A stretch of 64,000 nucleotides of DNA, taken from assembly GCA_023247795.1 (NCBI GenBank), contig JAHFFT010000002.1, positions 31,760 to 95,759 of the forward strand, read 5' to 3'. Made by a program: the position numbers and the translations under genes. Each line of letters starts with the position of its first letter. The first letter of the stretch is position 1. This document shows, piece by piece, positions 1,811 through 41,238 of the stretch. The notes beneath the pieces were generated by a model, which was not told where the DNA came from, searched no databases, and worked only from the letters and a program-made list of their open reading frames with translations. The DNA is from Candidatus Omnitrophota bacterium. GTDB lineage: Bacteria; Omnitrophota; Gorgyraeia; Zapsychrales; JANLHA01.

Positions 1811-2512
1811 TTGAATTTAAAAAAATCGATCACAGTGGTTGTGCCGGCTTTGAATGAAGAGGACAACATTCAAGCGGCTATCAAGAATGTCATTGAGGCT
1901 GTTTCCGGACATTGGGATGATTATGAAGTATTGGTGATGAACGACGGCAGCACCGACCGAACGGGCGTCTTGGCCGAAGAAATGGCAAAAAATAATCCTA
2001 AGATCCGAGTCGTTCATAATGAAAGGAACTTGGGATACGGCACCTCTTACCGAAAGGCGGTCGGGCTGGCCTCAAAAGAGTATATAAGCATTTTTGCAGG
2101 TGATAATGAAATTTCCGCGATGTTTTTGCGTGATTTTCTTCCCAATCTTGGCGATGTCGATTTTGTGACTTCTTATCCATCAACGACGCATAAGCGCGTT
2201 TGGCTCCGACGGTTCCTGTCCAAAACTTTTATCAATACCATGAATTTCATTTTTAGATTGAAGCTAAGATGCTATACGGGCGCCTTTGTTTATCGGGTTT
2301 CATTGGTTCGCTCCATTCCAATCAAATCAGATGGGCTGATGCTTTTGCCGGAATGTCTTGTGCGTCTGATCAAGGCTGGACACCGTTTCCGTCAGGTCCC
2401 TTTTGAGTACATCGGACGCAAAGGAGGAAAATCAACGGCCTTGAGTTCTAAGAATCTCTTGGGGGGAGTGAGGGTACTTTTAATTCTGATGAAGGATATT
2501 TATTTTCAATAA
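1811..2512 (+). CDS. GT2 family glycosyltransferase, DPM1/GtrB/ArnC-like polyprenyl-phosphate sugar synthase (soluble ~233 aa form)
   Basis: VVVPALNEE…YEVLVMNDGSTDRTG…DGD-like acidic motif typical of GT-A fold GT2. The same architecture recurs at 3776 and 9473. TTG start in the ORF track. Confidence 0.7.
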   Translation: MNLKKSITVVVPALNEEDNIQAAIKNVIEAVSGHWDDYEVLVMNDGSTDRTGVLAEEMAKNNPKIRVVHNERNLGYGTSYRKAVGLASKEYISIFAGDNEISAMFLRDFLPNLGDVDFVTSYPSTTHKRVWLRRFLSKTFINTMNFIFRLKLRCYTGAFVYRVSLVRSIPIKSDGLMLLPECLVRLIKAGHRFRQVPFEYIGRKGGKSTALSSKNLLGGVRVLLILMKDIYFQ

Positions 2513-3751: not shown

Positions 3752-3775
3752 CGAACAAACAACAGTGAGGGTTTT

Positions 3776-8449: not shown

Positions 8450-8535
8450 TAAGTTACAGAAGAATTTAGGGTCAGATAGTTAAAATACTGCAAGCGGCTA
8501 ATTTCGAGTGTCAAAAAAGAAATGATGACAAGAAA

Positions 8536-9426: not shown

Positions 9427-9472
9427 TGCGCAGAGTTGTTGACGTCTTAGTTTTCAAATTGAGGAGAGATTT

Positions 9473-10237: not shown

Positions 10238-10243
10238 AATTTT

Positions 10244-12327: not shown

Positions 12328-12381
12328 CAATGGAATGCCAAGGTTTAGTTGCATGATTTAATCGGGGGAAGGGCAAGAAAG

Positions 12382-14016
12382 ATGTCAATCCAGGTGGAAA
12401 ATAAATTTAAAATCATTGGGATATTACTTTTTTTATTAGTTTTATTGATTAACCCTTTTGTTGTGCAGCAATTGACGGTGCAGTACTATATTTTTAGCTT
12501 GTTGTTTTTAGTTTTCGGTTTGGGTTGCTATTTTAATTTTTTTGGATTAGGTAAAAAAGTAATAGGTGTCTTTAAATATTTCGAGAGTCATAATGGTTGG
12601 TGGCTGCTGATGACGCAGGCCGCCATTTATATTTTTTATCTACTGTTGAATCAAGACCTCCTATCATATCAACTGCATGCTGGTTCTGGAGATGGGCTGA
12701 GTTACACTGGCTTTGATTTTTCTTCCTGGACTTCAGCCTTGGGTAGCATTCGTACGGTCGGGTTACCGGTGATCCTGAAGATTTATGGTTTAGTATTTCA
12801 AAATTTTCACTTTTGGCCGCATTTTCAGAGATTGTCTTACATTTTATCAGTATTTTTTCTTTATGGGTGTTTCTTGAGATTTGGGTTTAATAGGATATTT
12901 GCGTTGTTGGTTGTTTCTTTGTTACTTTGGGATAATGCGGACAACTACATATTCTGTGATGCTGGGACCGAAGTATTTGCCGCGGTTTTTTTACAATTAA
13001 CTATTGGTAGCATGCTTTTGGCTATTCGGAACTGGAACTGGAAAACCGCGGTATCGCTGGGAGTCAGTACATTTTTCCTTTATCAAATCCGTCCCAATTT
13101 CGCGTTCATACCAATCTTAGTTCCGTTATGGGCGGTTGGTATTTCAGTGATTAAAGAGACTTTTTTGTTGGCCCGGGCTCGCAATATTTTCTTTCGCTTT
13201 TCTCTGGTCACTATCTTGCCGCTCTTTTTGTTTTGTTTGCTTCGTCTTTTGGTTGTGGAGCAATTCGGTGTCGTATCCATGAGCGGTGGATGTCTCGCGG
13301 GGCACGCGGTTCATTATTTGAACGAAGAAAATATTCAGCATTTATCAGGGGACGTGAGAATGTTGGCCGATGAAATATTGGTCCGTAAACGCCAGCTAAC
13401 ACCGCCGAACAATCTTTCCCCATTTGAATGGATTACATTTGTTTCTGAGGAGGAGAAAGTTGAAATGGAGGCGAATGCCTTTGGTCCTAATTTGATGACT
13501 TCGTGGGATGTTGCTATAAGGCATCTTAGAGGAGTTGAACCATTTCCAGATCCAAAACAGAACATTGAACCGTGGAAACACACGTTGACATTATCGGGTT
13601 TTCACACTCAGTATTATAATTTTGAAACAGATCGTCTTTTGATGAGATTTTCAATAGCTGTTTTGACTCGCGAATGGAAAAGATATGTTCATTGGCTGGT
13701 GGGCGGCACTTTTTACGGCATGAGGGAGTATTGTAAATCACGATCATGGCTGCCTTGGTTAGGTTTTCTTGGGATTATTAAATTGACGTATTTTTTGTTG
13801 GCCAATGGTTGGGATGTCGTTCGGCTTAAGTGCTGGCATCGGGATATCGCGATTTTTTTGATGATTGCTGGAAGCATTTTCGTTTTTGGTTTTATTCCAA
13901 TAATCGTTTTTAATTATCCATTCGCGCGTCTTTTTGATTGGATCGGAATTTATTTGTTGCCGGCGGTTCTGTGTTTTACACTACCGCCTTTCTGGTTAAA
14001 GCGGGAAGCCGCGTAA
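12382..14016 (+). CDS. polytopic membrane protein, paralog 1 of a tandem pair (about 545-555 aa)
   Basis: Multiple TM segments. Central ~100 aa soluble loop (…LTPPNNLSPFEWITFVSE…). The ORF track starts at TTG 12349; ATG 12382 with an upstream GGGGAAGG is the likelier start. C-terminus LPPFWLKREAA is identical to the next gene. Confidence 0.5.
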   Translation: MSIQVENKFKIIGILLFLLVLLINPFVVQQLTVQYYIFSLLFLVFGLGCYFNFFGLGKKVIGVFKYFESHNGWWLLMTQAAIYIFYLLLNQDLLSYQLHAGSGDGLSYTGFDFSSWTSALGSIRTVGLPVILKIYGLVFQNFHFWPHFQRLSYILSVFFLYGCFLRFGFNRIFALLVVSLLLWDNADNYIFCDAGTEVFAAVFLQLTIGSMLLAIRNWNWKTAVSLGVSTFFLYQIRPNFAFIPILVPLWAVGISVIKETFLLARARNIFFRFSLVTILPLFLFCLLRLLVVEQFGVVSMSGGCLAGHAVHYLNEENIQHLSGDVRMLADEILVRKRQLTPPNNLSPFEWITFVSEEEKVEMEANAFGPNLMTSWDVAIRHLRGVEPFPDPKQNIEPWKHTLTLSGFHTQYYNFETDRLLMRFSIAVLTREWKRYVHWLVGGTFYGMREYCKSRSWLPWLGFLGIIKLTYFLLANGWDVVRLKCWHRDIAIFLMIAGSIFVFGFIPIIVFNYPFARLFDWIGIYLLPAVLCFTLPPFWLKREAA

Positions 14017-14023
14017 GCGTAAT

Positions 14024-15718
14024 TTGACGCCTTTCTTGTCGACAGACAATAGTTTTATTATACAGAAGGGTAGAGCAGTGGTAGAGCAAATTGAAAAAAG
14101 ATCTAGAATTATTGGGATTGCTTTTTTTTTATTAATTTTATTCATTAACCCTTTTGTTTTGCAACAATTGACACGGTATCCTTTTATTTATAGCCTGGTG
14201 TTTTCATTTTTAGGGATGTGTTATTATTTTCAAATTTTTTGGTTAGGCAAGAAAGTAACAGCCAGCTTCCAATATCTCAACAGCCAAAATTGTCTATGGT
14301 TGCTCGTCGTACAGTCAATCGTTTTTTTAGTCTTTCTCTCGATAAACAACTGTCTTAAGTGGGACCCAAATTATGCTTTTGGGGGAGATGCGCCAAGTTA
14401 TATCGAATTTGATTTTTCTTCTTGGGCTTCTATCTTGGGGAATCTTCGGACTTTCGGATTACCTTTAATTATTAAGAGTTACCAATTGGTATTTAAGGAT
14501 TTTCAACCTTGGCCGTATGTCCAGATGATTTCTTATGTTTTTTCTATTTTTTTTCTTTATTGGTGCCTTTTGAGTTTTGGTTTTAATAAAATATTTGCGT
14601 TGCTTATTGTTTCGTTTTTGCTTTGGGACAAAACGAATTTTCTTGCTTTTCGTTTTATCCGAACGGAATCTCTTTCTGCGACATTTCTACATCTCTCTGT
14701 TGGTAGCATGCTTTTGGCTATTCGGAACTGGAACTGGAAAACCGCGGTATCACTGGGAGTCAGCACATTTTTTCTCTATCAAATCCGTCCCAATCTTTCG
14801 TTCATAGCAATCTTAGTTCCGTTATGGGCGGTCGGCATTTCAGTGATTAAAGAGCATTTTCATTTGGCCCAGGCTCGCAACATTTTTTTTCGTTTTTCTC
14901 AAGTGACCATCTTGCCGCTCTTTTTGTTTTGCTTGCTGCGTCTTCTGGTTGTGGGGCAATTTGGTGTGGTGTCCATGAGTGGCTTATGTCTTGCTGGGCA
15001 TGCGGCACATTATTTAAATGAGAAGAGCATCCAATATTTATCAGGGGACGTGAGAACGTTGGCGGATGAAATATTGGTGCGTAAACGTCAGTTAACCCCT
15101 CCTAACAATCTTTCACCATTTGAATGGATTACATTTGTTTCGGAGGCGCAGAAGGTTGAAATGGAGGCCGACGCATTTGGCGCTGATTTGACGATCGCTT
15201 GGAACGTTGCAATTAAACAGATTAAGGGTGTTGAGCCATTTGATGATCCGAGACTGAAGATTGAAGCGTGGAAAACCAATTTGATGGAATTGGCGATTTT
15301 TCAATTTCATCAACATAATTTTAAAATAGATCGTCTTTTGATGAGATTTTCAATAGCAGTTTTGACTCGGGAATGGAAAAGATATGTTCATTGGCTGTTG
15401 GGTGGCAGTTTCTATGGTATGAGGATATATTTGGAATCGCGGTCGTTTTGGTTGATTTGTTTAGGATATTTAGTGATAGGGAAATTGATTTTTTTGCTGT
15501 TGTGCCAGAGATTGGATGGTGCTGAGCTTAAGCGTTGGAATCAGGATATCAAAATTTTCATGATGATGGCCGGCAGCCTTTACATTTTTGGTCTTATTCC
15601 TGTGGTGGTTTTTAATTATCCATTCCTGCGACTTCTTGATTTGATTGGTATTTATTTGTTGCCAGCGTTCTTGTGTTTTTCGTTGCCGCCTTTTTGGTTA
15701 AAGCGGGAAGCCGCGTAA
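14024..15718 (+). CDS. polytopic membrane protein, paralog 2 of the tandem pair (564 aa from the ORF track; true start uncertain)
   Basis: Collinear with 12382..14016. Stretches of nucleotide-level identity (e.g. LLAIRNWNWKTAVSLGVSTFFLYQIRPN) and the same C-terminus. Confidence 0.5.
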   Translation: MTPFLSTDNSFIIQKGRAVVEQIEKRSRIIGIAFFLLILFINPFVLQQLTRYPFIYSLVFSFLGMCYYFQIFWLGKKVTASFQYLNSQNCLWLLVVQSIVFLVFLSINNCLKWDPNYAFGGDAPSYIEFDFSSWASILGNLRTFGLPLIIKSYQLVFKDFQPWPYVQMISYVFSIFFLYWCLLSFGFNKIFALLIVSFLLWDKTNFLAFRFIRTESLSATFLHLSVGSMLLAIRNWNWKTAVSLGVSTFFLYQIRPNLSFIAILVPLWAVGISVIKEHFHLAQARNIFFRFSQVTILPLFLFCLLRLLVVGQFGVVSMSGLCLAGHAAHYLNEKSIQYLSGDVRTLADEILVRKRQLTPPNNLSPFEWITFVSEAQKVEMEADAFGADLTIAWNVAIKQIKGVEPFDDPRLKIEAWKTNLMELAIFQFHQHNFKIDRLLMRFSIAVLTREWKRYVHWLLGGSFYGMRIYLESRSFWLICLGYLVIGKLIFLLLCQRLDGAELKRWNQDIKIFMMMAGSLYIFGLIPVVVFNYPFLRLLDLIGIYLLPAFLCFSLPPFWLKREAA

Positions 15719-15748
15719 TTTGACGCATTTTCTGTCGGAGAGAAAAAA

Positions 15749-16267
15749 TTGATTTGTATTACGATCAGTTTAGCGTTTTTGATCCTATCAGTTTCATTTC
15801 ATTTGTTTTGGTGTAAATATTCAAAACGCCAGGGGCTGCATCTTACTTCCCTGATGGTCATTTATTTGTTGTTTTCTTCGTTGCTCGTAATCCTCACGGT
15901 GAGTAATATGGGAAAGGCCGTAGAGGAGCATCCATCCGATCTTTGGAACATGCCTTTGGGTTTGACAGCCATTCTTTTTTATCTTTTGCTTTTTTTTGTC
16001 TATTTTGTTTTGTTTACGACCACGGTCATTGATAGCCCATCCAATCACCTTACGGAGATGGTGAGAAATCAGGGGCCACTCACCTATCAACAGATATTGG
16101 ATAAAATGGGAGGGGACCATTTTATGATGTCAAGATTAAAAACTTTGGTGAGTGAGAAATATGTGGAAAATAACGGTTCGCGCTATCAGTTAACGGCAAG
16201 GGGTTGCTGGTTGGCAAGGATTTTGAACGCTTATCAACGGGTTTGCGGTCGGACTTGGGGAGGTTAA
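15749..16267 (+). CDS. small membrane protein with a C-terminal winged-helix-like soluble domain
   Basis: 3-4 TM segments followed by GPLTYQQILDKMG…LKTLVSEKYVENNGSRYQLTARG (helix-turn-wing pattern). TTG start in the track; an internal ATG is possible. Confidence 0.35.
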   Translation: MICITISLAFLILSVSFHLFWCKYSKRQGLHLTSLMVIYLLFSSLLVILTVSNMGKAVEEHPSDLWNMPLGLTAILFYLLLFFVYFVLFTTTVIDSPSNHLTEMVRNQGPLTYQQILDKMGGDHFMMSRLKTLVSEKYVENNGSRYQLTARGCWLARILNAYQRVCGRTWGG

Positions 16268-16272
16268 GGTTA

Positions 16273-16812
16273 ATGACGCTTTATGATAGTGTTGTGATTG
16301 TACCGGTCGGCGCTGCCTTTTTTATTTTTCTCGTGATTCATATTGGTTTTTTTCGATTTTTTCCAAGCCAGGACGTCTTACGAAATCTTATTCAGGTTTT
16401 CTTGATCGGTGGTGCGGCTCATATCGCCGCCTTCATTTATTATGGTGGACAGCAAGGGATCATCGGATCAATGGGTCTTTTGAGTCTGCTTTTTTTATTT
16501 GTCGTCTCATTTCTTTTGTATTCTTGCCTGGCGTACATTTATACGATTTGCGTGTTTGGTCCATACGAATCATCGATCCGCATACGCATTGTTCGTGAAT
16601 TGTATCGACAATATCCTAAGCTGATAAGCTGGAAGGAACTTTCGAATCATTACAATATTGACATGATATTGCGGCGACGGCTGGATCGTCTGGTTCGGTC
16701 CCGGGATTTCATTTTCGATGGCAAGTTTTATACAGCAGTTCGAAAAGTGAACATGTTCTCAATTCTTAAGATCGTTGGGAAGAAGTTGAGTGAATTAAGT
16801 AACAATCAATAA
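16273..16812 (+). CDS. small membrane protein with a C-terminal winged-helix-like soluble domain (second copy)
   Basis: ATG at 16273 (MTLYDSVVIV…). 4 TM segments, then IRIVRELYRQYPKLISWKELSNHY…RLDRLVRSRDFIFDGKFYTAV. Stop overlaps the start of the next gene. Confidence 0.4.
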   Translation: MTLYDSVVIVPVGAAFFIFLVIHIGFFRFFPSQDVLRNLIQVFLIGGAAHIAAFIYYGGQQGIIGSMGLLSLLFLFVVSFLLYSCLAYIYTICVFGPYESSIRIRIVRELYRQYPKLISWKELSNHYNIDMILRRRLDRLVRSRDFIFDGKFYTAVRKVNMFSILKIVGKKLSELSNNQ

Positions 16813-19800
16813 TGATCAAGCTGAACATGGCGTCATTTTTCCGTAACATCCTCTTTCTGATCGTTGGATTAAGCTGTGGATTGACGTTTTTATGGTTGAC
16901 GGTTAATGGACGCATCGGTGGTCATGACTTTTTGGCCATTGCGGTTGATCGATATTTTTTTCTTAATCAAACGATCTCTGGTCATGAATTCCCACAATGG
17001 ATCCCTTATGTAGTCCATGGTGCCCCAACGGCATATGCCAATGGGGCATATGGAGGACGTCTTCAAGATGTTCTGCTTTTGACCTCCTCTTTCCTTCCTA
17101 AAATCAACTTTCTGACCTATCTCAACTTAGGTTTTCTTATCGATGAGTTGCTATTAGCAGTGGGCATGTGGTTGTGGGCGTCAAGATTATTCAAACATAA
17201 GACCACAATGGCTTTTGTATCGGGTACAGTGCTCGCGTCTACGATATGGCTTTATGCGCCCGCTTTTAATCTGCAGATTTATTTTTCCATTCCCTTGGTT
17301 CTTTATTTTTTCCATCAATTTTTAGATCAAGGGAAATGGCGTTATTTTTTATTTGGGATGAATATGTTGGCCATTCAAACCATAGGGGGCGTTCCCTACT
17401 TTTTTCCAGCAACTAGTCTTGTTGTATTTTTATACGCGGTATTTTATTGTTTGTTCAATGTCAAGGACACATTGGTCAAACTGCGTCGAATCACGTTTTC
17501 CGTCCCCGCTGTCATAGTGTGCCTTTTGGTCATATTGTCATTCGTGATCGTTTTTAGCTTTTATCATTTTTCATTTGGCGAAATTTTTTTTAATAGAGGA
17601 GCTGGTCATGGGGAGATCGGACTTGATCAATTTTTGTCGTATGGGGGCTGTTTCGGATTCACGAAATGGACAGAGTTGATTCTGGGTTTTTCTTCGCATG
17701 TGGATACTGTTCTATATTCAGGAATTTCAACCGTCATTTTGGTGATGTTTTATGTATTTACAGGTGTTAAAAAGGAGAGTCTGCCTATTTTTGGCACTTT
17801 TATTTTTATTTTTTTCTTCAGTGCCGGTGGAATATTGGCAAAGATCTGTTATTATGCATGGCCGCTGATGTCATATTTCCGCCACGTTGCCTACATAGCC
17901 ATGATCGCTAAGGTTTTTTTAATTATGCTGGCGGGGTTCGGCTTGGACCGGTTGATCGATATGAAGCGCCAACCCAATGCCGGAACGAGCGCCAAGGCGC
18001 CTTTGACCTTGTGTATTGTCTTCACGATATTAATCGGCCTGTCCCTTTTCTATGCGAGTTCAAATTTTGATTTGATGGCAAAATCAACAGGTGTCATCGG
18101 CAAGTCAATATTAAAGCAATATTTATCATCAGCTAATTTCTATGATTTTGATGTTGATGGCCTGCGCGATGGGCAATTTGATGAAGGGGTGTCGTTTATC
18201 GTTTATCGGCTTATCTATACTTCGCTGATTGCCGTTATCATCGCTGGATTATTGGGCCTTTTATTCATGAAAGATGTCGCAAAGAGGAAAATATTTCTCA
18301 CGGTGTTTGTCCTTTTTCATTTTTATGATGTCTTTGGGTATAAGTATCTCGAGATGGGGTTAAGGACGGTGAAGCTGAAACAGGAAACCTTGGATCTTTT
18401 TAAATTTCAGGACATTCCGTTCAATCGCCAGCGGCGAATGGACTTGGATAAAAATAATCTAAGATTACAAGAGTTTTTTAATGTCCTTTTGACGGATCGA
18501 TTGATGTATGCCATGGATAACACCTTTCTTTTTGCCGACCAGGTAAATGGGGCATTTCGCACCGATTATTGGCCGAAGTCGTTCAATGATTATATCCGCG
18601 CGCATTGGCGGCTGCCTTTGGATGAGCATGATATCCCCAAGAAAAGTAACAATAGGCAAGGGAACGTGGTGTTCCCACTTCAGAAAGAATCGGCTAAGAA
18701 AATCTCCGGAATCACAAAGGAAAAAATACAGTTTTTTTCAAAGGCGTACGCGCTATCGAGTCGAGTGCAGACCGCTGAGGTGTTGGCGGACCCTCAATAT
18801 CAGGGGGACACGATTTTTCTTGATATGGATCAGGACGCTGAAAAGTCTTACCAAGGAGTTGTCGAGAGTTTCAATAAAGATGAATTGAACAGAAATGATC
18901 GGGTGACTTTGGGGTATGAGGTGCTGGAGTTTGACGCGAATAATTTGAAGTTATCGGTGAATAATAACAGCGGGCAAAAGGTGTGGCTGCATTACAGTGA
19001 CAGTTGGCATCCGTTTTGGAAGGTGACGATCAATGGGAAGAAGGGAGAGATCTACAAATCGAACTTGGCTTATAAGGCGGTGCTGTTGGAGCAGGGGGCG
19101 AATGTTGTATGGTTCCGGTTCCACTCATCGTGGATGGTATTTTTGCATTATGTGGTAGGGATCAATTCCTTATTGTGGATCATTGCGTTGTTTGGGTTTA
19201 TATTCTTGATTTTAAGACAAAAGGATGATGCATCTGAATTAAGAGGAAAGGAATGGGGATGTGTGATTTTGATTGTGGGGGCTTTAGTGGGTGCGCATCT
19301 TATGTTGGCAGGGCAGATACCGAAAGTGATGCACAAGGAGGACAAAGACGGGAAGAGCAATATGGATTATTTGGAACGGCTAGCGAAGAAAGAGGAAATG
19401 TTTGATGAAGGGAAGGTCAAAGGGGGAGTGAAAGTGCTGAACCGGTTAGCGCAGGTCAAAAATTATCGATCGATCGCGTTAGAGGATCTGGGATTTTGTT
19501 ATTACGCGAGCCATGATTGGGACAAGGCGTTGGAATATTACGCACGATCGATCAAAGAGGAGTCCTTTTTTTATGCGGCCCATTATGATGCCGCGTTGGT
19601 TTATTTACAACGCAAGGAGTATGGTGCTGCGATGGAACAATTGAAAGCGGGTGTGATGAAATTGCAAACATTTCGTTCCCTTGTGCAAAATCTGGTGGAT
19701 GGCGCGGCAAAGAATGGGGTAGGTGATTTTGTCAATAACGGGAGCGCACTTGTTGAAGAAATGAATCAGGATGAAGAGAAAATGTATTTATTGGTAAATG

Positions 19801-19913
19801 GGCAGCTGCCATCCGTTGAGGACTTGAATCCGCATTTTTTTGGAAAAGATCAACATGAATTCTATAAGCAACTGCTTGATCTTAATGATAAGTATCATTT
19901 TTGGCGATCTTAG
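16812..19913 (+). CDS. giant polytopic membrane protein, paralog A (1033 aa); candidate GT-C-fold glycosyltransferase with a C-terminal TPR-like domain
   Basis: ~13 N-terminal TM segments. First loop NGRIGGHDF…HEFPQW. ~270-aa soluble middle domain. Two further TM segments. C-terminal TPR-like repeats (YYARSIKEE…AAHYDAALVYLQRKEYGAAMEQL). Confidence 0.55.
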   Translation: MIKLNMASFFRNILFLIVGLSCGLTFLWLTVNGRIGGHDFLAIAVDRYFFLNQTISGHEFPQWIPYVVHGAPTAYANGAYGGRLQDVLLLTSSFLPKINFLTYLNLGFLIDELLLAVGMWLWASRLFKHKTTMAFVSGTVLASTIWLYAPAFNLQIYFSIPLVLYFFHQFLDQGKWRYFLFGMNMLAIQTIGGVPYFFPATSLVVFLYAVFYCLFNVKDTLVKLRRITFSVPAVIVCLLVILSFVIVFSFYHFSFGEIFFNRGAGHGEIGLDQFLSYGGCFGFTKWTELILGFSSHVDTVLYSGISTVILVMFYVFTGVKKESLPIFGTFIFIFFFSAGGILAKICYYAWPLMSYFRHVAYIAMIAKVFLIMLAGFGLDRLIDMKRQPNAGTSAKAPLTLCIVFTILIGLSLFYASSNFDLMAKSTGVIGKSILKQYLSSANFYDFDVDGLRDGQFDEGVSFIVYRLIYTSLIAVIIAGLLGLLFMKDVAKRKIFLTVFVLFHFYDVFGYKYLEMGLRTVKLKQETLDLFKFQDIPFNRQRRMDLDKNNLRLQEFFNVLLTDRLMYAMDNTFLFADQVNGAFRTDYWPKSFNDYIRAHWRLPLDEHDIPKKSNNRQGNVVFPLQKESAKKISGITKEKIQFFSKAYALSSRVQTAEVLADPQYQGDTIFLDMDQDAEKSYQGVVESFNKDELNRNDRVTLGYEVLEFDANNLKLSVNNNSGQKVWLHYSDSWHPFWKVTINGKKGEIYKSNLAYKAVLLEQGANVVWFRFHSSWMVFLHYVVGINSLLWIIALFGFIFLILRQKDDASELRGKEWGCVILIVGALVGAHLMLAGQIPKVMHKEDKDGKSNMDYLERLAKKEEMFDEGKVKGGVKVLNRLAQVKNYRSIALEDLGFCYYASHDWDKALEYYARSIKEESFFYAAHYDAALVYLQRKEYGAAMEQLKAGVMKLQTFRSLVQNLVDGAAKNGVGDFVNNGSALVEEMNQDEEKMYLLVNGQLPSVEDLNPHFFGKDQHEFYKQLLDLNDKYHFWRS

Positions 19914-20008
19914 TCCCTAGAAAGTAACAAGTCCGAGGCTACAAGTCTCAAGTTGCCAATTACTTGAGTCCTGAAACATGAGACCCTAGTTATGGGGTCG
20001 TCACCTTC
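19911..20008. repeat. ~98-nt conserved 3' repeat with nested hairpins (ctcaagt-N8-acttgag; gaccc-N7-gggtc). Copy 1, directly after paralog A.
   Basis: About 90% identical to 23179..23276. Contains a CAAGTCTCAAG-family palindrome. Confidence 0.6.
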
Positions 20009-20067
20009 ATTGGCGGTTTGGTTTTAAATAATTTAGGGAACAATGCGATAGATAGGCTTTCATAGAT

Positions 20068-23000
20068 ATGAAGAATAGCCGTTTAAGCAATTTCAAATCA
20101 TCATTTTTTCGCAATATCCTTTTTTTGGTCATTGGATTAAGCTGTGGATGCACGTTTTTATGGTTGACGGTAAATGGACGCATTGGTGGTCATGATTTTT
20201 TGGACGTTGCGATTCATCGATATTTTTTTCTTAATCAAGCGATTTCTGCTCATGAATTCCCACAATGGATCCCTTATGTAGTCCATGGTGCCCCAACGGC
20301 ATATTCCAATGCGACGTATGATGGGCGACTTCAAGATGTTTTGCTCTTGATCTCCTCTTTCCTTCCTAAAATCAACTTTTTGACCTATCTCAACTTAGGC
20401 TTTCTTATCGATGAGTTGCTATTAGCAGTGGGCATGTGGTTATGGGCATCACGGGTGTTTCAGCATAAATTAACAATGGCCTTTGTATCGGGGACAGTGC
20501 TTGCGTCTTCGGTATGGGTTTATGCGCCCGGCTTTGATCTGCAGATTTATTGCGCCATTCCTTTGGTTCTTTATTTTTTTCATCAATTTTTAGATCAAGG
20601 GAAATGGCGATATTTTTTATTTGGGATGAATCTGTTGGCCATCCAAGCCATAGGGGAGCCTCCCTATTTTTTCCCGGCAACCACACTAGCGGTATTTTTA
20701 TATTTGGTATTTTACTGTTTGTTCAATATCAAGGACACATTGGTCAAACTGCGTCGAATCACGTTTCCCGTCTCTGCGGTCATAGCGTGTCTTCTGGTTA
20801 TATTGTCATTCGTGGTCGTTTATGGTTTTTTTCATTTCTCATTTGATCAAATTACGATCAATCGAGGAAGCAACCCTGAAGGGAAGATTGGCATTGAGCA
20901 ATTTTTATCGTATGAGGTCTCTTTCGGATTCACTAAATGGACAGAGTTGATTCTGGGCTTTTCTTCGCAGGTGGATATTATGCTTTATTCAGGAATTTCA
21001 ACCGTCATTTTGGTTATGTTCTATGTATTCACAGGTATTAAAAAGGAGAGTCTGCCAGTTTTGGGCACTTTTATTTTCCTCTTTTTCTTAAGTACCGGCG
21101 GCGGAATATTGGCAAAGATCTGTTATTATGTGTGGCCGTTGATGTCATATTTTCGCCAACTTGCGTACATAGCCATGATCGCTAAGGTTTTTTTGATTAT
21201 GTTAGCGGGGTTTGGCTTGGACCGGTTGATCGATGTGAAGCGTCAACCCAATGCCGGAATAAAGGTTAAGGGACCTTTGACCTTGTGTATTGTCTTCACG
21301 ATATTAATCGGCCTGTTCCTTTTCTTTGCGAGTTCCAATTTTGATTTGATGGTGCAATCAATGCGGCTCATCGGCAGGGAAATGTTAAAACCATATCTAC
21401 TGTCGGTTAATTTTTATGATTCTATCGTTGCTAGTGCGCGAGACGGTCAGTTTGAAGAAGGGGTCCCGTTGATAGCTTATCGGTTTATCGGTACTTCGCT
21501 GATTGCCGTTATCATCGCTGGATTGATGTGCGCTTTATTCATAAAAGATGTCGCGAAAAGGAAATTTTTTCTGACGGTGTTTGTCCTTTTTCATTTTTAT
21601 GATGTCTTTGGGTACAAGTATCTCGAGATGGGGTCAAGGTCGGTGAAGCTGAGGCAGCAGACCTTGGATTTTTTTAAGTTTCAAGATATGCCGTTCAATC
21701 GTCAGCGGCGAATGGATTTTGATAAAGATAATCCCAGATTCAATAACCTTTTTCCATATCGAGTGATGTATGCCATGGTGACCACCTTTTTTTTTACCGA
21801 TCAGGTGAATGGGGTATTTCGTACTGATTACTGGCCGAAGCCGTTCAATGATTACATTCGCGCGCATTGGCGGCTGCCTTTGGATGAGCATGATATCCCG
21901 AAATATGGATATGTCGATGACGAACGGCTTATTGTCCAGTATCCGCTGGATAAGGAATCGGCCCAAAAGATCTCCGGAATCACGAAAGAGAAAATACAGT
22001 TTTTTTCAAAGGCGTACGCGTTATCAAGTCGAGATCAGACCGCTGAGGTGTTGGCGGACCCTCAATATCAGGGGGACACGATTTTTCTTGATATGAATCA
22101 GGGCGCTGAAAAGTCTTACCAAGGAGTTGTCGAGGGTTTCAATAAAGATGAATTGAGCAGGAATGATCGGGTGACTTTGGGGTATGAGGTGCTGGAGTTT
22201 GACGCGAATAATTTGAAGTTATCGGTGAATAATGACAGCGGGCATCAGGTCTGGCTGCATTACAGTGACAGTTGGCATCCGCTTTGGAAGGTGACGATCA
22301 ATGGGAAAAAGGGGGATATCTACAAGTCGAATTTAGCATATAAGGCGGTGCTGTTAGAGCAGGGAGCTAATGTCGTATGGTTTCGGTTCCACTCATCGTG
22401 GATGGTATTTTTGCATTATGTGGTAGGGATCAACTCGTTGTTGTGGATCATCGCGTTGTTTGTGTTTATCGTCATGATTTTAAAACAAAAGCAAAAGAAT
22501 AATGCTTTTGAGTTGACCGGGCGGGAATGGGGGAAGACTTTTCTTATAGTGAGTATTTTAGTGGTCACGCATCTTATGTTAGCTAGACCCATTTCCAGAA
22601 TGGTGTATCCTACAAAAGACGGTAAGAACAATATGGATTATTTGGAACGATTGGCGAAGAGCGAGGATGTGTATGATGAACGAAAGGTTAAAGGGGGCAT
22701 CAAGGCGTTGACCCAACTAGCGCATGTGAAACCCTATCGAACCATCGCGTGGGAGGACCTAGGATTTTGTTATTACGCGAGCCATGATTGGGACAAGGCG
22801 TTGGAATATTACGCGCGATCGATCAAAGAGGAGCCGTTTTTCTACGCGGCGCATTACGACGCCGCATTGGTTTATTTACAACGCAAGGAGTATGGTGCTG
22901 CGATGGAACAATTGAAAGCGAGTGTGATGAAATTACAAAAATTCCGTTCCTTTGTGCAGAATCTGGTGGATAACGCGGCAAAGAATGGGACGGGTGATTT

Positions 23001-23181
23001 TGTATCGAGCGGGACCTCCCTTGTTGAAGAGATGAATCGTGATGAAGAGAAAATGTATTTATTGGTCAAGGGACAGTTGCCATCTGAGGATTTGAAGCCG
23101 CACTTCTTTGGAAAAGATCGACATGAATACTATAAACTGCTGATCGATCTCAATGACAAGTTTCATTTTTGGCAATCTTAG
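20068..23181 (+). CDS. giant polytopic membrane protein, paralog B (1037 aa)
   Basis: Collinear with A. Long tracts of more than 90% nucleotide identity with A, interrupted by diverged blocks (aa ~395-470 and ~540-620). Confidence 0.55.
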   Translation: MKNSRLSNFKSSFFRNILFLVIGLSCGCTFLWLTVNGRIGGHDFLDVAIHRYFFLNQAISAHEFPQWIPYVVHGAPTAYSNATYDGRLQDVLLLISSFLPKINFLTYLNLGFLIDELLLAVGMWLWASRVFQHKLTMAFVSGTVLASSVWVYAPGFDLQIYCAIPLVLYFFHQFLDQGKWRYFLFGMNLLAIQAIGEPPYFFPATTLAVFLYLVFYCLFNIKDTLVKLRRITFPVSAVIACLLVILSFVVVYGFFHFSFDQITINRGSNPEGKIGIEQFLSYEVSFGFTKWTELILGFSSQVDIMLYSGISTVILVMFYVFTGIKKESLPVLGTFIFLFFLSTGGGILAKICYYVWPLMSYFRQLAYIAMIAKVFLIMLAGFGLDRLIDVKRQPNAGIKVKGPLTLCIVFTILIGLFLFFASSNFDLMVQSMRLIGREMLKPYLLSVNFYDSIVASARDGQFEEGVPLIAYRFIGTSLIAVIIAGLMCALFIKDVAKRKFFLTVFVLFHFYDVFGYKYLEMGSRSVKLRQQTLDFFKFQDMPFNRQRRMDFDKDNPRFNNLFPYRVMYAMVTTFFFTDQVNGVFRTDYWPKPFNDYIRAHWRLPLDEHDIPKYGYVDDERLIVQYPLDKESAQKISGITKEKIQFFSKAYALSSRDQTAEVLADPQYQGDTIFLDMNQGAEKSYQGVVEGFNKDELSRNDRVTLGYEVLEFDANNLKLSVNNDSGHQVWLHYSDSWHPLWKVTINGKKGDIYKSNLAYKAVLLEQGANVVWFRFHSSWMVFLHYVVGINSLLWIIALFVFIVMILKQKQKNNAFELTGREWGKTFLIVSILVVTHLMLARPISRMVYPTKDGKNNMDYLERLAKSEDVYDERKVKGGIKALTQLAHVKPYRTIAWEDLGFCYYASHDWDKALEYYARSIKEEPFFYAAHYDAALVYLQRKEYGAAMEQLKASVMKLQKFRSFVQNLVDNAAKNGTGDFVSSGTSLVEEMNRDEEKMYLLVKGQLPSEDLKPHFFGKDRHEYYKLLIDLNDKFHFWQS

Positions 23182-23276
23182 TCCCTGGAAAGTAACAAGT
23201 CCGAGGCTAGAAGTTTCAACTAGCAAATTACTTGAGACCTGAAACATGAGACCCTAGTTATGGGGTCGTCACCTTC
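23179..23276. repeat. ~98-nt conserved 3' repeat, copy 2, directly after paralog B
   Basis: tagtccctggaaagtaacaagtccgaggcta… matches 19911..20008 closely. Confidence 0.6.
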
Positions 23277-23332
23277 TTTTGTGGTTAGGTGTTCAATGAT
23301 TTATGAATATGTGATAGATTGAATTTATAGAT

Positions 23333-26300
23333 ATGAAGAATAAGCGTTTAGGCAATCCCCAACCAGCATTCCCTTACAATATTCTTTTTTTGCTCGTTGC
23401 ATTAAGTTGTGGATTGACGTTTTTATGGTTGACGCTTGATGGACGGATAGGGTGTCGTGATTTTTTGGACCTTGCGATTCATCGATATTTCTTCCTGAAT
23501 CAAGCGATCACGGGTCATGAATTCCCACAGTGGGTCCCTTATGTAGTTCATGGTGCCCCAACGGCATATTCCAATGGGGAATTTGGTGGCCGTCTTCAAG
23601 ATGTTTTGCTTTTGATCTCCTCTTTCCTTCCTAAAATCAACTTTCTGACTTATCTCAACCTAGGTTTTCTTATCGATGAGTTGTTATTAGCGGTGGGCAT
23701 GTGGTTGTGGGCGTCACGATTGTTTCAGCATAAATTAACAATGGCCTTTGTATCGGGGACAGTGCTTGCGTCTTCAGTATGGGTTTATGCGCCCGGTTTT
23801 AACCTGCAGATTTATTGCGCCATTCCTTTGGTTCTTTACTTTTTCCATCAATTTTTAGATCAAGGGAGATGGCGTTATTTTTTATTTGGGATGAATCTGT
23901 TGGCCATCCAAGCCATTGGGGGCGCCCCTTACTTTTTCCCGGTAAGTAGTCTTGTGGTATTTTTATACACGGTATTTTATTGTTTGTTTAATGCGCGGGA
24001 TACCCAGGTCAAACTCCGTCGAATCAAGTTTTCCGTCCCTGCTGTCATATCGTGCCTTTTGGTCATATTGTCATTCATGATTGTTTTTAGCTTTTATCAT
24101 TTTTCATTTGATCAAATTACGATCAATCGAGAAGCCGACCCTGAAGGGAAGATTGGCATTGTGCAATTTCTGTCTTATGGCGGAAGTGCTGGTTTTGCTA
24201 AATGGAGCGCTTTGTTATTAGGCTTTTCTTCGCATTTGGACATAATGCTTTATTCAGGAATCCTGACAGTGCTGTTAGTTATTTTTTATCTGCTGACAGG
24301 TTTGAAAAGAGAAGGTGTGCCCATTTTGGTGACATTTATTTTCCTACTTTTTTTCAGCGCTGGAGGAGTCTTAACAAAGATTTGTTATTATGTGTGGCCA
24401 CTCATGTCTTATTACCGACATGTTACCTATACAGCGATGATCGCGAAAGTTTTTATGATCATGTTAGCTGGGTTTGGTTTGGACCGCCTAATGCACTGGA
24501 AATTTCAAGTCTCTGAGGAAAAACACGGTAAGCGGTCTTTGGTTTTTATGATCGTCCTCGCGCTATTGATGGGGATTTCCTTCATTTATGTGTGTTCAAG
24601 TGGGCAGGCCGTTTATGATTTGATGGTAAAATTGAAGGCCATGACTGATGTATTTCTTCTTAGGCAATATCATCTTTCCAATGAGAGTTTTTATGATTTT
24701 ATCCTCAATGGCCTGGGGGAGGGAAGGGGGCAATTTGATGAAGGAATCTCGCTGATTGTTTGTCAACTCACTCGCGCGGCGATTGCGGCTTTAATGATTG
24801 GAGGTTTGCTTTGTGTTTTGTTAGTTAAGGATAAGATTAAAAAGGGTCTGTTGATCACCGTTTTGGTCCTTTTTCATTTCTCCGACGTGTTTGGTTATAA
24901 ATGTTTGGAAATGAATTTAAGAACGGTGAAATTAGATCGGCAAATGACCGATCTCTTTAATTTTCATGACATGTCATTTAATCGTCAGCGACGGACAGAT
25001 TTAGATTGGATGAATCCCAGAGTTTTTTCCTTTTTTAAAGATGAGGCCCTTTTAAAGGTTTTACTATCAAGTCGATGGCTGTATTCATCGGATAATACCT
25101 TGCTCTTCACCGACCAGGTGAATGGGGCATTTCGTACCGATTATTGGCCGAAGTCGTTCAATGATTACATTCGCGCGCATTGGCGGCTGCCTTTGGATGA
25201 GTATGCTATCCCCAAAGAAAAGAACAAGAGTCAAAGTCTCATAGTGTTTCCATTTGAGAAAGAATCGGCCAAGAAGATATCAGGAATCACGAAAGAGAAA
25301 ATCCAGTTTTTTTCAAAGGCGTACGCGCTATCGAGTCGAGATCAGACCGCCGAGGTGTTGGCGGACCCTCAATATCAGGGGGATGCGATCTTTCTTGATA
25401 TGGATCAGGATGCTGAAAAGTCTTACCAAGGAGTTGTTGAGGGTTTCAATAAGGATGAATTGAGCAGGAATGATCGGGTGATTTTGAGGTATGAGGTGCT
25501 GGAGTTTGACGCGAATAATTTGAAGTTATCGGTGAATAATGACAGCGGGCAAAAGGTCTGGCTGCATTACAGTGACAGTTGGCATCCGCTTGGGAAGGTG
25601 ACGATCAATGGGAAGAAGGGGGAGATCTACAAGTCGAATTTAGCTTATAAGGCGGTGCTGTTGGAACAGGGTGCTAATGTCGTATGGTTCCGGTTCCACT
25701 CATCGTGGATGGTGTTTTTGCATTATGTGGTAGGGATCAACTCGCTGTTGTGGATCATCGCGTTATTTGTGTTTATCGTCATGATTTTAAGAGAAAAGGA
25801 TACGACATCGGAATTGGGAGGGAAAGATTGGGGGTTTGTTTTTCTGCTAGCATCAATCTTGGTGATTGGGCATCTGATTTTAGCCAACACCATTCCCAGA
25901 GTGATGTACCGAACAGATAAGGACGGGAAGAGCAATATGGATTATTTGGAACGATTGGCGAAGCACGAGGAAGTCTATGATGAAGGGAAGGTCAAAGGGG
26001 GAGTGAGGGTGTTGAACCGGCTCGCACAGGTCAAATCCTATCGAGCCATCGCGTGGGAGGACCTAGGATTTTGTTATTACGCGAGCCATGATGGGGACAA
26101 GGCGTTGGAATATTACGCGCGATCGATCAAAGAGGAACCGTTTTTTTATGCGGCGCATTATGATGCCGCGTTGGTTTATTTACAACGCAAGGAGTATGGG
26201 GCTGCGATGGAACAATTGAAAGCGGGTGTGATCAAATTACAAACATTTCGCTCTCTTGTGCAGAATCTGGTGAATGACGCGGCAAAGAATGGGATGGGTG

Positions 26301-26485
26301 ATTTTGTCAATAACGGGATCGCGTTAGTTGAAGAGATGAATCAGGATGAAGAGAAAATGTATTTATTGGTAAAGGGACAGTTGTCATCGGAGGACTTGAA
26401 TCCGCATTTCTTTGGAAAAGAAAAACATGATTTTTATAAGACCCTTGTTGATTTCAACAATTGGAATCATTTTTGGAACAATTAA
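23333..26485 (+). CDS. giant polytopic membrane protein, paralog C (1050 aa)
   Basis: Same architecture. Loop-1 motif DGRIGCRDF. Most divergent middle segment of the three. No 3' repeat after it. Confidence 0.55.
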   Translation: MKNKRLGNPQPAFPYNILFLLVALSCGLTFLWLTLDGRIGCRDFLDLAIHRYFFLNQAITGHEFPQWVPYVVHGAPTAYSNGEFGGRLQDVLLLISSFLPKINFLTYLNLGFLIDELLLAVGMWLWASRLFQHKLTMAFVSGTVLASSVWVYAPGFNLQIYCAIPLVLYFFHQFLDQGRWRYFLFGMNLLAIQAIGGAPYFFPVSSLVVFLYTVFYCLFNARDTQVKLRRIKFSVPAVISCLLVILSFMIVFSFYHFSFDQITINREADPEGKIGIVQFLSYGGSAGFAKWSALLLGFSSHLDIMLYSGILTVLLVIFYLLTGLKREGVPILVTFIFLLFFSAGGVLTKICYYVWPLMSYYRHVTYTAMIAKVFMIMLAGFGLDRLMHWKFQVSEEKHGKRSLVFMIVLALLMGISFIYVCSSGQAVYDLMVKLKAMTDVFLLRQYHLSNESFYDFILNGLGEGRGQFDEGISLIVCQLTRAAIAALMIGGLLCVLLVKDKIKKGLLITVLVLFHFSDVFGYKCLEMNLRTVKLDRQMTDLFNFHDMSFNRQRRTDLDWMNPRVFSFFKDEALLKVLLSSRWLYSSDNTLLFTDQVNGAFRTDYWPKSFNDYIRAHWRLPLDEYAIPKEKNKSQSLIVFPFEKESAKKISGITKEKIQFFSKAYALSSRDQTAEVLADPQYQGDAIFLDMDQDAEKSYQGVVEGFNKDELSRNDRVILRYEVLEFDANNLKLSVNNDSGQKVWLHYSDSWHPLGKVTINGKKGEIYKSNLAYKAVLLEQGANVVWFRFHSSWMVFLHYVVGINSLLWIIALFVFIVMILREKDTTSELGGKDWGFVFLLASILVIGHLILANTIPRVMYRTDKDGKSNMDYLERLAKHEEVYDEGKVKGGVRVLNRLAQVKSYRAIAWEDLGFCYYASHDGDKALEYYARSIKEEPFFYAAHYDAALVYLQRKEYGAAMEQLKAGVIKLQTFRSLVQNLVNDAAKNGMGDFVNNGIALVEEMNQDEEKMYLLVKGQLSSEDLNPHFFGKEKHDFYKTLVDFNNWNHFWNN

Positions 26486-26582: not shown

Positions 26583-26659
26583 GGGCCCGTGGTGTAGTTT
26601 GGTTAACATATCTGATTGTCGATCAGAAGATCGCGAGTTCAAATCTCGTCGGGCCCGCC
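26583..26659 (+). tRNA. tRNA-Asp (anticodon GTC)
   Basis: GGGCCCG…CGGGCCC acceptor stem. Anticodon loop TTGTCGA. T-arm GAGTTCAAATCTC. Encoded CCA. Confidence 0.8.
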
Positions 26660-26744
26660 ATCTCAACGACCCTTCAAGTGAAGTTTTTTTTATTTGCTGA
26701 GAACCATCCGATTGGGGCCCGATTTTTAAGAGCCTTGCTATTTC

Positions 26745-26784: not shown

Positions 26785-28071
26785 ATGCACACTATGTTTC
26801 CCGCAGAATATTCACAAGGGAGCGTCCCTCAGCAGGCGTTGGATTTGTTGGAAAAGACCGAGGAACACCTCTTCGTGACTGGCAAGGCCGGGACCGGTAA
26901 GACTACCCTTCTACGCTATCTTAAAGAAAAAAGCAAAAAAAATATCGTGATCGTTGCCCCGACGGGCGTCTCCGCCATTCATATCAAAGGACAGACGATC
27001 CATTCTTTTTTTCGTTTCCCACCGAAATTCATCCGTAAAGAAAACCTTCATCGCCTGAACAATAGTCCTCTCATGCGCAAGATGGACACGCTTATGATTG
27101 ATGAGGTGTCGATGCTCAGAGCAGATCTACTTGACGGGATTGATTATTCGCTGCGTCTCAACCGGGATGAGATGAAGAAGCCTTTCGGCGGGGTGCAGGT
27201 GTTTTTTTTTGGTGATCTTTATCAACTGCCGCCGGTGGTCGACCGGGAGATGAAAGAAGTCTTTGATTTGGATTATCAGAGCCCGTATTTTTTTAGCGCC
27301 AGAGTTTTTCAGGAATTGAAGTTGAAAAAACTCGAATTGACAGAAGTCCATCGGCAGAAAGACGATGAGTTCCTTTCGCTGCTTGAGAAAATCCGGACCA
27401 AGACCATGACGAAAATGGACTTAAGCCAGATCAATCGCCTGACGGAAAACGAATTCGATGAAGAATCTTCGGTGATCTTAACGACGACCAATCAAAGGGC
27501 CGGGGCCATCAATAAAACGAGGTTGGCCAGACTCACCGGCCAAGAATTTGTTTACAAGGCTAGCGTGAGCGGCCAATTTGAAGACGGGAGCTTCCCGACG
27601 GACGATCATTTGTCTTTGAAAAAGGGGGCGCAGATCATGCTCATCCGCAATGATGACCAGAAACGCTGGGTCAATGGTACCTTGGCAAAGATCCATGATT
27701 TGGACCAGGATTTCATTCGCGTTGAAATCAACGGCTGCGTTCATGACGTCACTCCTTTCATTTGGGAGAAGATCAGTTACACCTACAATGATGTTGAAGA
27801 CAAGATTGATGAAAAGGTCATGGGTCGATTCGAACAATATCCGATCAAGTTGGCCTGGGCAGTCACCATCCATAAAAGTCAGGGCCAGACGTTTGATAAA
27901 ATTGTCGTCGACTTTGACGCCGGGGCCTTTTCGCACGGGCAAGTCTATGTGGCTTTAAGCCGGTGCACGTCAATGGCAGGGATCACGCTAAGGCGGCCGT
28001 TATTGCACAGCGACGTGATTTTGGATGAACGGATCCATCGTTTTAAGGAAGACTGCTTGAGCATTGGTTAG
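26785..28071 (+). CDS. PIF1/RecD-like superfamily-1 DNA helicase (AAA_30 + UvrD_C_2-type)
   Basis: Walker A GKAGTGKTTLL. Walker B LMIDEVSML. C-terminal AWAVTIHKSQGQTFD motif. Possible extended -10 (tgctacaat) overlapping the annotated start; an alternative ATG lies at 26794. Confidence 0.7.
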   Translation: MHTMFPAEYSQGSVPQQALDLLEKTEEHLFVTGKAGTGKTTLLRYLKEKSKKNIVIVAPTGVSAIHIKGQTIHSFFRFPPKFIRKENLHRLNNSPLMRKMDTLMIDEVSMLRADLLDGIDYSLRLNRDEMKKPFGGVQVFFFGDLYQLPPVVDREMKEVFDLDYQSPYFFSARVFQELKLKKLELTEVHRQKDDEFLSLLEKIRTKTMTKMDLSQINRLTENEFDEESSVILTTTNQRAGAINKTRLARLTGQEFVYKASVSGQFEDGSFPTDDHLSLKKGAQIMLIRNDDQKRWVNGTLAKIHDLDQDFIRVEINGCVHDVTPFIWEKISYTYNDVEDKIDEKVMGRFEQYPIKLAWAVTIHKSQGQTFDKIVVDFDAGAFSHGQVYVALSRCTSMAGITLRRPLLHSDVILDERIHRFKEDCLSIG

Positions 28072-41117: not shown

Positions 41118-41205
41118 TTTTCAAGTTTCAGGTCGCAGGTCTCAAGTCACAAGAAAAAAACACTTGGCAACTTGAGACGTGCGATTTACCAATAACCTGC
41201 GAGGT
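41118..41205. repeat. CAAGTCTCAAG-family palindromic intergenic repeat (imperfect long hairpin)
   Basis: caggtctcaagtcacaag-A7-cacttggcaacttgagac, with an outer tcgcaggt / acctgcga pairing. Confidence 0.5.
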
Positions 41206-41238
41206 CAGAACATCAGAAAGGCCTGTTTTTTGTTTATG

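Follow-up and report, generated by a model that had tools for sequence, protein, structure and literature searches.

We analysed a window of 64,000 nucleotides (nt) from a Candidatus Omnitrophota bacterium (GenBank assembly GCA_023247795.1, contig JAHFFT010000002.1, positions 31,760 to 95,759 of the forward strand), to which all positions below refer. It carries three genes for large membrane proteins, here called paralogs A, B and C, which lie head to tail on the plus strand as three intact open reading frames (ORFs). The tandem triplet described in an initial annotation made from the sequence alone is thus confirmed. Most likely, A, B and C are tandem paralogs of a diderm Omnitrophota genome that gene conversion has shaped, and they fall in a divergent subclade of a described group of GT-C glycosyltransferases, the YfhO family (PF09586). 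The locus is laid out as follows (aa, amino acids).

16812..19913, plus strand: paralog A, 1033 aa, predicted YfhO-like GT-C glycosyltransferase
19914..20067, plus strand: A-B spacer, closely similar to the B-C spacer
20068..23181, plus strand: paralog B, 1037 aa, architecture as in A
23182-23332: B-C spacer, closely similar to the A-B spacer
23333..26485, plus strand: paralog C, 1050 aa, architecture as in A, central segment most divergent

A single nt is shared between the ATG of A and the stop codon of the ORF before it, and a spacer of about 150 nt precedes each of B and C. Since the two spacers resemble each other, the duplicated unit takes in the spacer, and duplication of this unit would have given rise to the three copies. 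The encoded proteins are 80% (A-B), 75% (A-C) and 73% (B-C) identical, with nucleotide identities of 84%, 79% and 79%, respectively. Both spacers contain an identical 18-nt hairpin, GACCCTAGTTATGGGGTC (19982-19999 and 23250-23267). Compared with shuffled sequence, the spacers showed no significant overall RNA structure (z -0.8 and -1.1), and a tRNA was the only match of an Rfam scan.

Pfam and NCBIfam scans of A, B and C revealed tetratricopeptide repeat (TPR) matches in the tail and nothing else, and a sequence search of the PDB likewise returned TPR matches only. A word-indexed protein search yielded four non-self relatives, one of which bears PF09586 (YfhO); the precomputed PF09586 match of the nearest relative, P0004, is weak. 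The nearly empty family suggested by this search proved to be a sensitivity artefact, as an exhaustive profile search retrieved 28,647, 4,824 and 910 cluster representatives at E-value cut-offs (<=) of 1e-3, 1e-10 and 1e-30, respectively. The 910 are mostly about 800 aa long, and more than 150 relatives of about 800 aa are full-length. The YfhO-like family is thus large but poorly indexed.

A profile built from A, B, C and their relatives retrieved, beyond its own clade, PF09586 proteins only. Furthermore, hhalign comparison of a 124-sequence subclade profile with ten PF09586 proteins gave a probability of 99.96% (E 4.5e-39) over 705 columns. The aligned span, positions 14-758 of the profile against 5-794, extends from the membrane module through the soluble domain to the last helix, at a profile identity of about 15%. 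The initial annotation had considered the architecture unlike that of described families, a view that we abandon because PF09586 proteins can be aligned over the whole of the first ~800 aa.

Structure prediction led to the same fold class. AlphaFold2 (AF2) modelling of A from the 124-sequence alignment gave a predicted local distance difference test score (pLDDT) of 82.8 and a predicted template modelling score (pTM) of 0.80; an earlier alignment of 17 sequences had produced a mediocre model (pLDDT 63). The model matched the GT-C folds of STT3B (score 18.4), ALG12 (17.7), AftD (17.6), Pmt2 (16.5), AftA (15.9), PglB (14.8), AglB (14.6) and ArnT (13.4), followed by ALG9, AftB, Pmt1, DPY19 and GPI mannosyltransferase I, and Foldseek agreed with these matches. 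The distant GT-C ancestry hinted at initially was therefore borne out by the GT-C fold of the predicted structure, and the profile search places A, B and C with the YfhO family.

The elements of A, defined from the secondary structure of the AF2 model and from hydropathy, are listed below; residue numbering throughout is that of A (TM, transmembrane helix).

aa 1-518 (16812-18365): GT-C membrane module
aa 6-31: TM1
aa 32-99: first periplasmic loop, with R34, H38 and D39
up to aa 518: twelve further membrane helices after TM1
aa 519-772 (18366-19127): periplasmic domain, ending in a beta-sandwich (~700-770)
aa 773-802 (19128-19217): TM14
aa 803-811: short loop with four Lys/Arg
aa 812-840 (19245-19331): TM15
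aa 841-1033 (19332-19910): TPR-like helical tail of about 190 aa, with TPR matches at ~886-961

The published topology of YfhO comprises 13 TM helices, with a sizeable extracellular loop before the last one (PMC5836110). Paralog A matches it, with 13 TM helices followed by the domain at aa 519-772 and then TM14. All the parts noted initially, namely a soluble domain, two later TM helices and a TPR-like tail, are present; as a 13-helix bundle with a large domain and a last helix is the published YfhO layout, the supposedly extra soluble domain and the helix that follows it are the family's own architecture. Only TM15 and the TPR tail are additions to the YfhO core.

Counting helices from the periplasmic domain places all the short Lys/Arg-rich loops of the model in the cytoplasm and all the conserved motifs in the periplasm, namely H38-D39, Q189/Y196, D298 and W350-P-x-M-x-x-x-R357-H358. 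By the same count, the TPR tail is probably periplasmic. Among the top 148 family representatives, eight exceed 1000 aa, and all eight carry a solenoid after an added stretch beyond TM14, made of ankyrin repeats in seven and of HEAT repeats in one:

P0047, P0049, P0081, P0095, P0100, P0112, P0128: ankyrin-bearing relatives
P0151: HEAT-bearing relative

The second TM helix passes the hydropathy threshold in 7/8 of these long relatives, P0047 having a sub-threshold hydrophobic stretch only. Delivery of a solenoid by an extra helix is thus a recurrent design, of which TPR is a rare flavour, and the ankyrin and HEAT solenoids of the relatives are probably periplasmic as well.

The motif reported right after TM1 in the initial annotation, in the first extracytoplasmic loop, was found in all three proteins:

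16905..16931, plus strand: NGRIGGHDF of A
20173-20199: NGRIGGHDF of B
23438-23464: DGRIGCRDF of C

The residues conserved across the family are R34, H38, D39, H168, D298, R357, H358, D576, W732 and W736. In 145 family sequences, conservation reaches 97% for D39, 90% for H38, 99% for R357, 93% for H358 and 99% for W736. D39, the putative catalytic acid, is present in A, B and C, and A keeps H38, R357, H358 and W736 as well. The family residue Q149 is replaced by Ala in all three. By analogy with characterised YfhO-type enzymes, A, B and C likely transfer sugar from a polyprenyl-phosphate carrier to a periplasmic or surface acceptor, and the donor would be lipid-linked.

Several observations weigh against this reading. 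The Pfam PF09586 model gives A, B and C no match even at E<=1, so that YfhO membership rests on profile-profile and fold evidence, and sequence searches with the subclade and PF09586 profiles found no YfhO-type structure in the PDB. The tail is modelled at low confidence (pLDDT ~45-75), and its TPR score exceeds the Pfam cut-off in B alone. The three family 2 glycosyltransferases (GT2) encoded upstream, described below, match polyprenyl-phosphate sugar synthases far below curated cut-offs, and their genes do not adjoin A, B and C; a Pfam/NCBIfam scan recognised no GtrA-type or other known flippase family. To our knowledge, YfhO enzymes have been studied only in Gram-positive bacteria, those characterised act in monoderms on teichoic acids or streptococcal Ser/Thr-rich proteins, and we know of no diderm acceptor. 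Finally, B carries H358Q, where 93% of the family has His, and C carries H38R and W736G at positions that are 90% and 99% conserved. Given such substitutions at near-invariant positions, not all copies need be active.

These last differences raise the alternative that A alone is a working enzyme, B and C being degenerating copies or non-catalytic partners that bind the acceptor or act as a scaffold, as in the pairs PgfM1/PgfM2 and Pmt1/Pmt2. The H38R change in C lies beside the putative catalytic Asp and its W736G change removes a nearly invariant Trp, while H358Q in B alters the conserved R-H motif; in A, all of these residues are intact. However, D39, R357, D298 and D576 are retained in all three proteins, the ORFs are intact and full-length, and the ratio of nonsynonymous to synonymous differences per site (pN/pS) is well below 1 over most of each gene, revealing purifying selection on all three. 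We therefore regard a single working copy as unlikely. Within the preferred reading of A, B and C as YfhO-like glycosyltransferases, the differences in B and C point to functional divergence or partial decay.

Divergence along the triplet is strongly non-uniform. Pairwise alignment, for which uniform divergence had been set beforehand as the outcome that would speak against a mosaic, showed identities ranging from 0.46 to 0.98 in 30-codon nucleotide windows, in line with the near-identical tracts and diverged blocks described initially. The tracts (all pairs at >=90% nt identity) and blocks (at least one pair at <=65%) are as follows (pS, synonymous differences per synonymous site).

A 18717..19187, plus strand (B 21985-22455; C 25292-25762): longest homogenised tract, pS 0.00-0.27, spanning TM14 and the beta-sandwich part of the periplasmic domain
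A 17055-17183: shorter homogenised tract
A 17265-17390: shorter homogenised tract
A 18555-18644: shorter homogenised tract
A 19473-19676: shorter homogenised tract, in the TPR region
A 17916..18548, plus strand (B 21190-21810; C 24452-25123): main divergent block, lowest pair at <=65% nt identity
A 17547-17711: other divergent block
A 18609-18719: other divergent block
A 19209-19370: other divergent block

In each of the three pairs, the C-terminal tracts singled out in the initial annotation reach 93-94% identity across some 405-410 nt. Another tract, said to equate 16990-17037 with 20250-20297, does not match in register (12/48 positions), but an identical tract exists with an offset of 10 nt (16990-17027 = 20260-20297). 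Likewise, the blocks placed at aa ~395-470 and ~540-620 do diverge strongly but form part of a larger block at A aa 369-579, beside which divergent blocks lie at aa 246-300, 600-636 and 800-853. The main divergent block includes the cytoplasmic loop between TM10 and TM11, TM11, the periplasmic loop at aa 418-452 (long and modelled with low confidence), TM12-13 and the start of the periplasmic domain.

Synonymous differences vary just as widely, pS ranging from 0.00 to 0.86. It is lowest at alignment columns 681-760 (0.00-0.04) and reaches saturation (0.7-0.86) between C and either A or B within columns 280-580; in the main divergent block, pS of C against A or B is 0.5-0.86. Moreover, the nearest neighbour is not constant over the gene. 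The closest pair is B-C at columns ~121-170 and A-B at ~286-560; the odd copy is C at ~306-563 and B at ~624-675. C is thus the most diverged paralog over the first of these two odd-copy regions, as had been proposed, but not over the second, where B is the outlier. The heterogeneity of the odd copy gave a chi-square of 198; permutations averaged 40 and did not exceed 78, so that 0/2000 reached the observed value, and the runs of matching polymorphic sites in A-B and in B-C were also reached in 0/2000. Because synonymous divergence is heterogeneous and the nearest neighbour shifts along the gene, the pattern reflects gene conversion and not uneven constraint alone. Recurrent gene conversion between A, B and C, suggested from the outset, is supported by these results.

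Through repeated events, gene conversion has partially homogenised TM helices 2 to 5, the beta-sandwich together with TM14, and the core of the TPR region, leaving the central segment from TM11 to the start of the periplasmic domain divergent. We considered and rejected the import of the divergent core of C from another lineage, as this core is 44-50% identical to A and B compared with <=30% to other representatives. Being nearest to A and B, it reflects old divergence within the lineage. The divergent central segment may set a different donor or acceptor specificity in each copy.

A second metagenome (ENA ERZ27297570) shows the same gene order as here, on a contig that ends inside B. In its copy of A, only two adjacent residues are different (H606Y and D607A), both being those of C at these positions, and its copy of C differs only by C41G, the residue of A and B. 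These paralog-state variants fit short, ongoing conversion tracts, the alternative being mis-phasing during assembly.

We then asked how selection acts on the divergent segments, which the initial annotation had attributed to diversifying selection on extracytoplasmic parts. pN/pS was below 1 in every 40-codon window, divergent blocks included, except one (A-B columns 41-80, 0.08 vs 0.07), and thus gives that attribution no support. In the divergent blocks, pN of 0.2-0.39 against pS of 0.5-0.86 gives ratios of 0.3-0.7, which fits relaxed constraint; three sequences provide no power for site tests and cannot exclude positive selection at individual sites.

These ratios bear directly on the proposal that the triplet is a diversity-generating cassette, in which conversion shuffles segments under diversifying selection on exposed loops and thereby varies a surface glycan or helps to evade phages or predators. 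The mosaic and the conversion are real, the most divergent block takes in the periplasmic loop at aa 418-452 as well as the beginning of the periplasmic domain, residues of donor paralogs appear in population variants, and mosaic tandem arrays recur in other lineages. However, besides a pN/pS below 1 in all windows but one, the divergent block is also the least conserved family-wide, as expected under low constraint, it consists largely of transmembrane helix and cytoplasmic loop that would not be exposed, and conversion homogenises these genes instead of diversifying them. Such a cassette thus appears quite improbable.

The mosaic could also be, wholly or in part, an artefact of short-read metagenome assembly in which near-identical repeats were joined into chimeras. 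The source is indeed a contig of a metagenome-assembled genome (MAG), the contig of the second sample breaks inside copy B, and mis-phasing could also yield between-sample variants that are paralog states. Conversely, the independent ENA assembly recovers A with two aa differences and C with one, all three ORFs are intact, exact runs common to the copies measure at most 72 nt, which is below ordinary read length, and mis-joining swaps segments but cannot create a gradient of synonymous divergence from 0 to saturation. We consider an assembly artefact very improbable. Uneven purifying selection on one old triplication, without recombination, would explain why the blocks best conserved among the paralogs are also conserved family-wide, but is already contradicted by synonymous sites that vary about 20-fold along the gene and by a closest pair that shifts from B-C to A-B to A-C with a heterogeneity that no permutation matched, and we give it almost no credence.

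Conversion between tandem copies, retained as the explanation of the mosaic, extends beyond this triplet. The relatives of A come from Omnitrophota, MAGs labelled Planctomycetota, Smithella and other Desulfobacterota, Verrucomicrobiota and Acidobacteriota, all at 35% identity to A or less. Tandem arrays of two to four neighbouring copies occur in eight distinct regions:

L001-L004: array region, four overlapping loci from different samples
L005: array region
L006: array region
L007: array region
L008: array region
L021: array region
L023: array region
L034: array region

At L015 and L025, a second copy is located at a distance of about 2.4 kb. Identity between copies of one genome is 41-79%. 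The L015 pair (9953-12322 vs 14726-17122) is 54-80% identical except for an exact tract of 510 nt at the 3' end, and the L006 pair (7514-9931 vs 9935-12382) shares an exact tract of 196 nt at aa ~100-165. Block-wise identity profiles of these two pairs correlate with those of the window's triplet (rho 0.78-0.80), and the block at aa 401-440 is the least similar in every pair compared. Gene conversion thus recurs in the YfhO-like family. In L001 (JGI 3300038309, 1-22475), three tandem YfhO-like genes stand among at least seven B12-binding radical SAM genes, a GT2 gene and a polysaccharide deacetylase gene, a gene context that is different and unusual for this family.

A cluster for glycan biosynthesis occupies the region upstream of the triplet and encodes two short-chain dehydrogenases/reductases, three small GT2 proteins, four methyltransferases, a zinc-dependent alcohol dehydrogenase, an RmlD-like reductase and an FAD oxidoreductase whose match to UDP-galactopyranose mutase (GLF) is faint and sub-threshold. 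The genes most relevant to A, B and C are the following.

1811..2512, plus strand: GT2 glycosyltransferase, 233 aa
3776-4480: GT2, 234 aa
9473-10237: GT2, 254 aa
15749-16267, plus strand: small multi-TM protein S172, 172 aa, directly upstream of A together with S202
16204-16812, plus strand: small multi-TM protein S202, 202 aa as listed, directly upstream of A

The three GT2 proteins bear a weak, sub-threshold resemblance to the polyprenyl-phosphate sugar synthases PgfS, PpgS, dolichyl-phosphate (Dol-P)-hexose transferase and ArnC, and are candidate makers of lipid-linked donors; a GT2 gene occurs within 10 kb in 15/54 related loci. S202 is called as 179 aa in the second assembly (calculated start near 16273). 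S172 has a weak, nearly full-length DUF2304 match (E 0.033) and possibly a C-terminal winged helix; DUF2304 is, we presume, tied to Rv3632. The order GT2, S172-like, S202-like, YfhO-like is repeated in the Omnitrophota MAG locus L017, where 2786-4041 encodes the two small proteins, and S172 and S202 are candidates for a flippase of the carrier lipid or for accessory subunits.

Other features of the window deserve mention. A tandem paralog pair of 555 and 564 aa (12349-14016 and 14024-15718), multi-TM and without Pfam or NCBIfam match, lies just upstream. The two are 65% identical overall and near-identical over aa ~220-370, hence mosaic too; no homolog was found in the 54 related loci. A 717-aa ORF of the glycan cluster (6296-8449), also without Pfam or NCBIfam match, has one homolog near a YfhO-like gene, in L043. 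Neither the pair nor this ORF is related to A, B and C, as hhalign detected no profile similarity to the YfhO-like clade. A tRNA-Asp gene (26583-26660) directly follows C and precedes a Pif1-like helicase gene (26785-28071). The GC content of the glycan cluster (~6-26 kb) is 0.36-0.43, compared with 0.45-0.50 in the flanks, and the lower-GC cluster with its tRNA-Asp edge may mark an island boundary. An Omp85-domain protein in the window indicates an outer membrane and thus a diderm host. A 943-aa protein encoded at 36372-39203 is an unusual fusion in which a peptidase M1 domain (aminopeptidase N-like) is followed by an Omp85/BamA-type barrel at the C terminus. All named matches of the PabB-PabC fusion of the window come from Omnitrophota (50-57% identity).

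Two further membrane proteins, TMTC/PMT-like paralogs that are 62% identical and end in a TPR region, are encoded at 39118-40701 and 41179-42654. They carry NGFIGDDH and NGFVSDDH after the first helix, with which the initial annotation had aligned NGRIGGHDF. This alignment was not supported, as hhalign assigned a probability of 0.4%, and the TPR tails of A and the TMTC-like protein were also found to be unrelated. Neither this pair nor A, B and C has a PMT-type Pfam match. The motifs are alike only by positional analogy, in that a GT-C fold carries an acidic residue in its first loop. Relatives of the TMTC-like pair occur within 10 kb of YfhO-like genes in about 7/54 loci.

Taken together, these elements outline a possible pathway. 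A cytoplasmic GT2 of the cluster would load a monosaccharide onto polyprenyl phosphate, and the charged lipid would be flipped across the membrane, perhaps by S172 and S202. The GT-C module, with D39 of the first loop, would then move the sugar to a periplasmic or surface acceptor. The fifteenth helix would return the chain to the periplasm, where the periplasmic domain, the variable loop and the TPR tail could contribute to acceptor binding, the tail helping to hold a protein acceptor or a partner.

The clade is of interest in its own right. It is a large, mostly unannotated sister clade of YfhO in outer-membrane-bearing, largely uncultured phyla, whose 910 clusters the Pfam model mostly misses, and it provides a well-populated alignment for a family without a solved structure. 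The extra helix and the probably periplasmic solenoid tail gained by some members suggest recognition of a protein or partner, and the tandem conversion arrays offer concrete candidates for the way in which surface glycans are built or varied in Omnitrophota. Far more speculatively, and with the odds clearly against it, the subclade could be an unrecognised class of diderm periplasmic protein or surface glycosyltransferases, in which an interchangeable solenoid delivered by helix 15 selects the acceptor and arrays kept by conversion serve as an evolvable surface-glycome toolkit of ultra-small, possibly host-dependent Omnitrophota.

Among known systems, the YfhO family is the closest. Its members include YfhO of B. 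subtilis and of S. aureus, a lipoteichoic acid (LTA) GlcNAc transferase, Lmo1079 of L. monocytogenes, which acts on wall teichoic acid (WTA), and the streptococcal PgtC2 and PgfM1/PgfM2, which O-glycosylate Ser/Thr-rich regions of proteins. YfhO-type glycosylation of LTA and WTA has been characterised (PMC5836110, PMC8035078), as has protein O-glycosylation by PgtC2 and PgfM1/M2 (PMC12041528). A, B and C share with this family full-length homology of the core, the GT-C fold, the layout of 13 TM helices, domain and last TM helix, the Asp conserved after TM1 and GT2 genes in the cluster. They differ from it by a profile identity so low that the Pfam model misses them, by the TM15, the TPR tail and the conversion-homogenised tandem triplet, and by the diderm hosts of the subclade (Omnitrophota, Desulfobacterota, Planctomycetota, Verrucomicrobiota), which lack teichoic acids. 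In contrast, they have no sequence or profile relationship to the TMTC/PMT O-mannosyltransferases and the bacterial PMT_2-TPR proteins, whose TPR tails are unrelated; PMT and TMTC proteins lack the large beta-rich periplasmic domain and the extra helices of YfhO-type proteins.

The set of a candidate GT2, two small multi-TM proteins and a GT-C transferase recalls the three-component systems CsbB/GtcA/YfhO, GtrA/GtrB/GtrX, ArnC/ArnEF/ArnT and PpgS/Rv3632/Rv3779. However, the GT2 proteins of the window do not have C-terminal TM helices like those of CsbB and GtrB, they stay below curated thresholds in their resemblance, and there is no GtrA-family match. As for the mosaic, near-identical tracts that alternate with old divergent segments, a duplicated spacer and donor-paralog variants in a second sample all resemble the concerted evolution of tandem surface-structure genes, although the triplet has no silent-cassette and expression-site layout, its copies are all full-length and there is no sign of programmed switching. 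The kind of enzyme, the fold and the concerted evolution of tandem genes were already known, and nothing is overturned; new here are a divergent YfhO subclade in diderm phyla, its added helix and TPR tail, and a tandem triplet homogenised by conversion.

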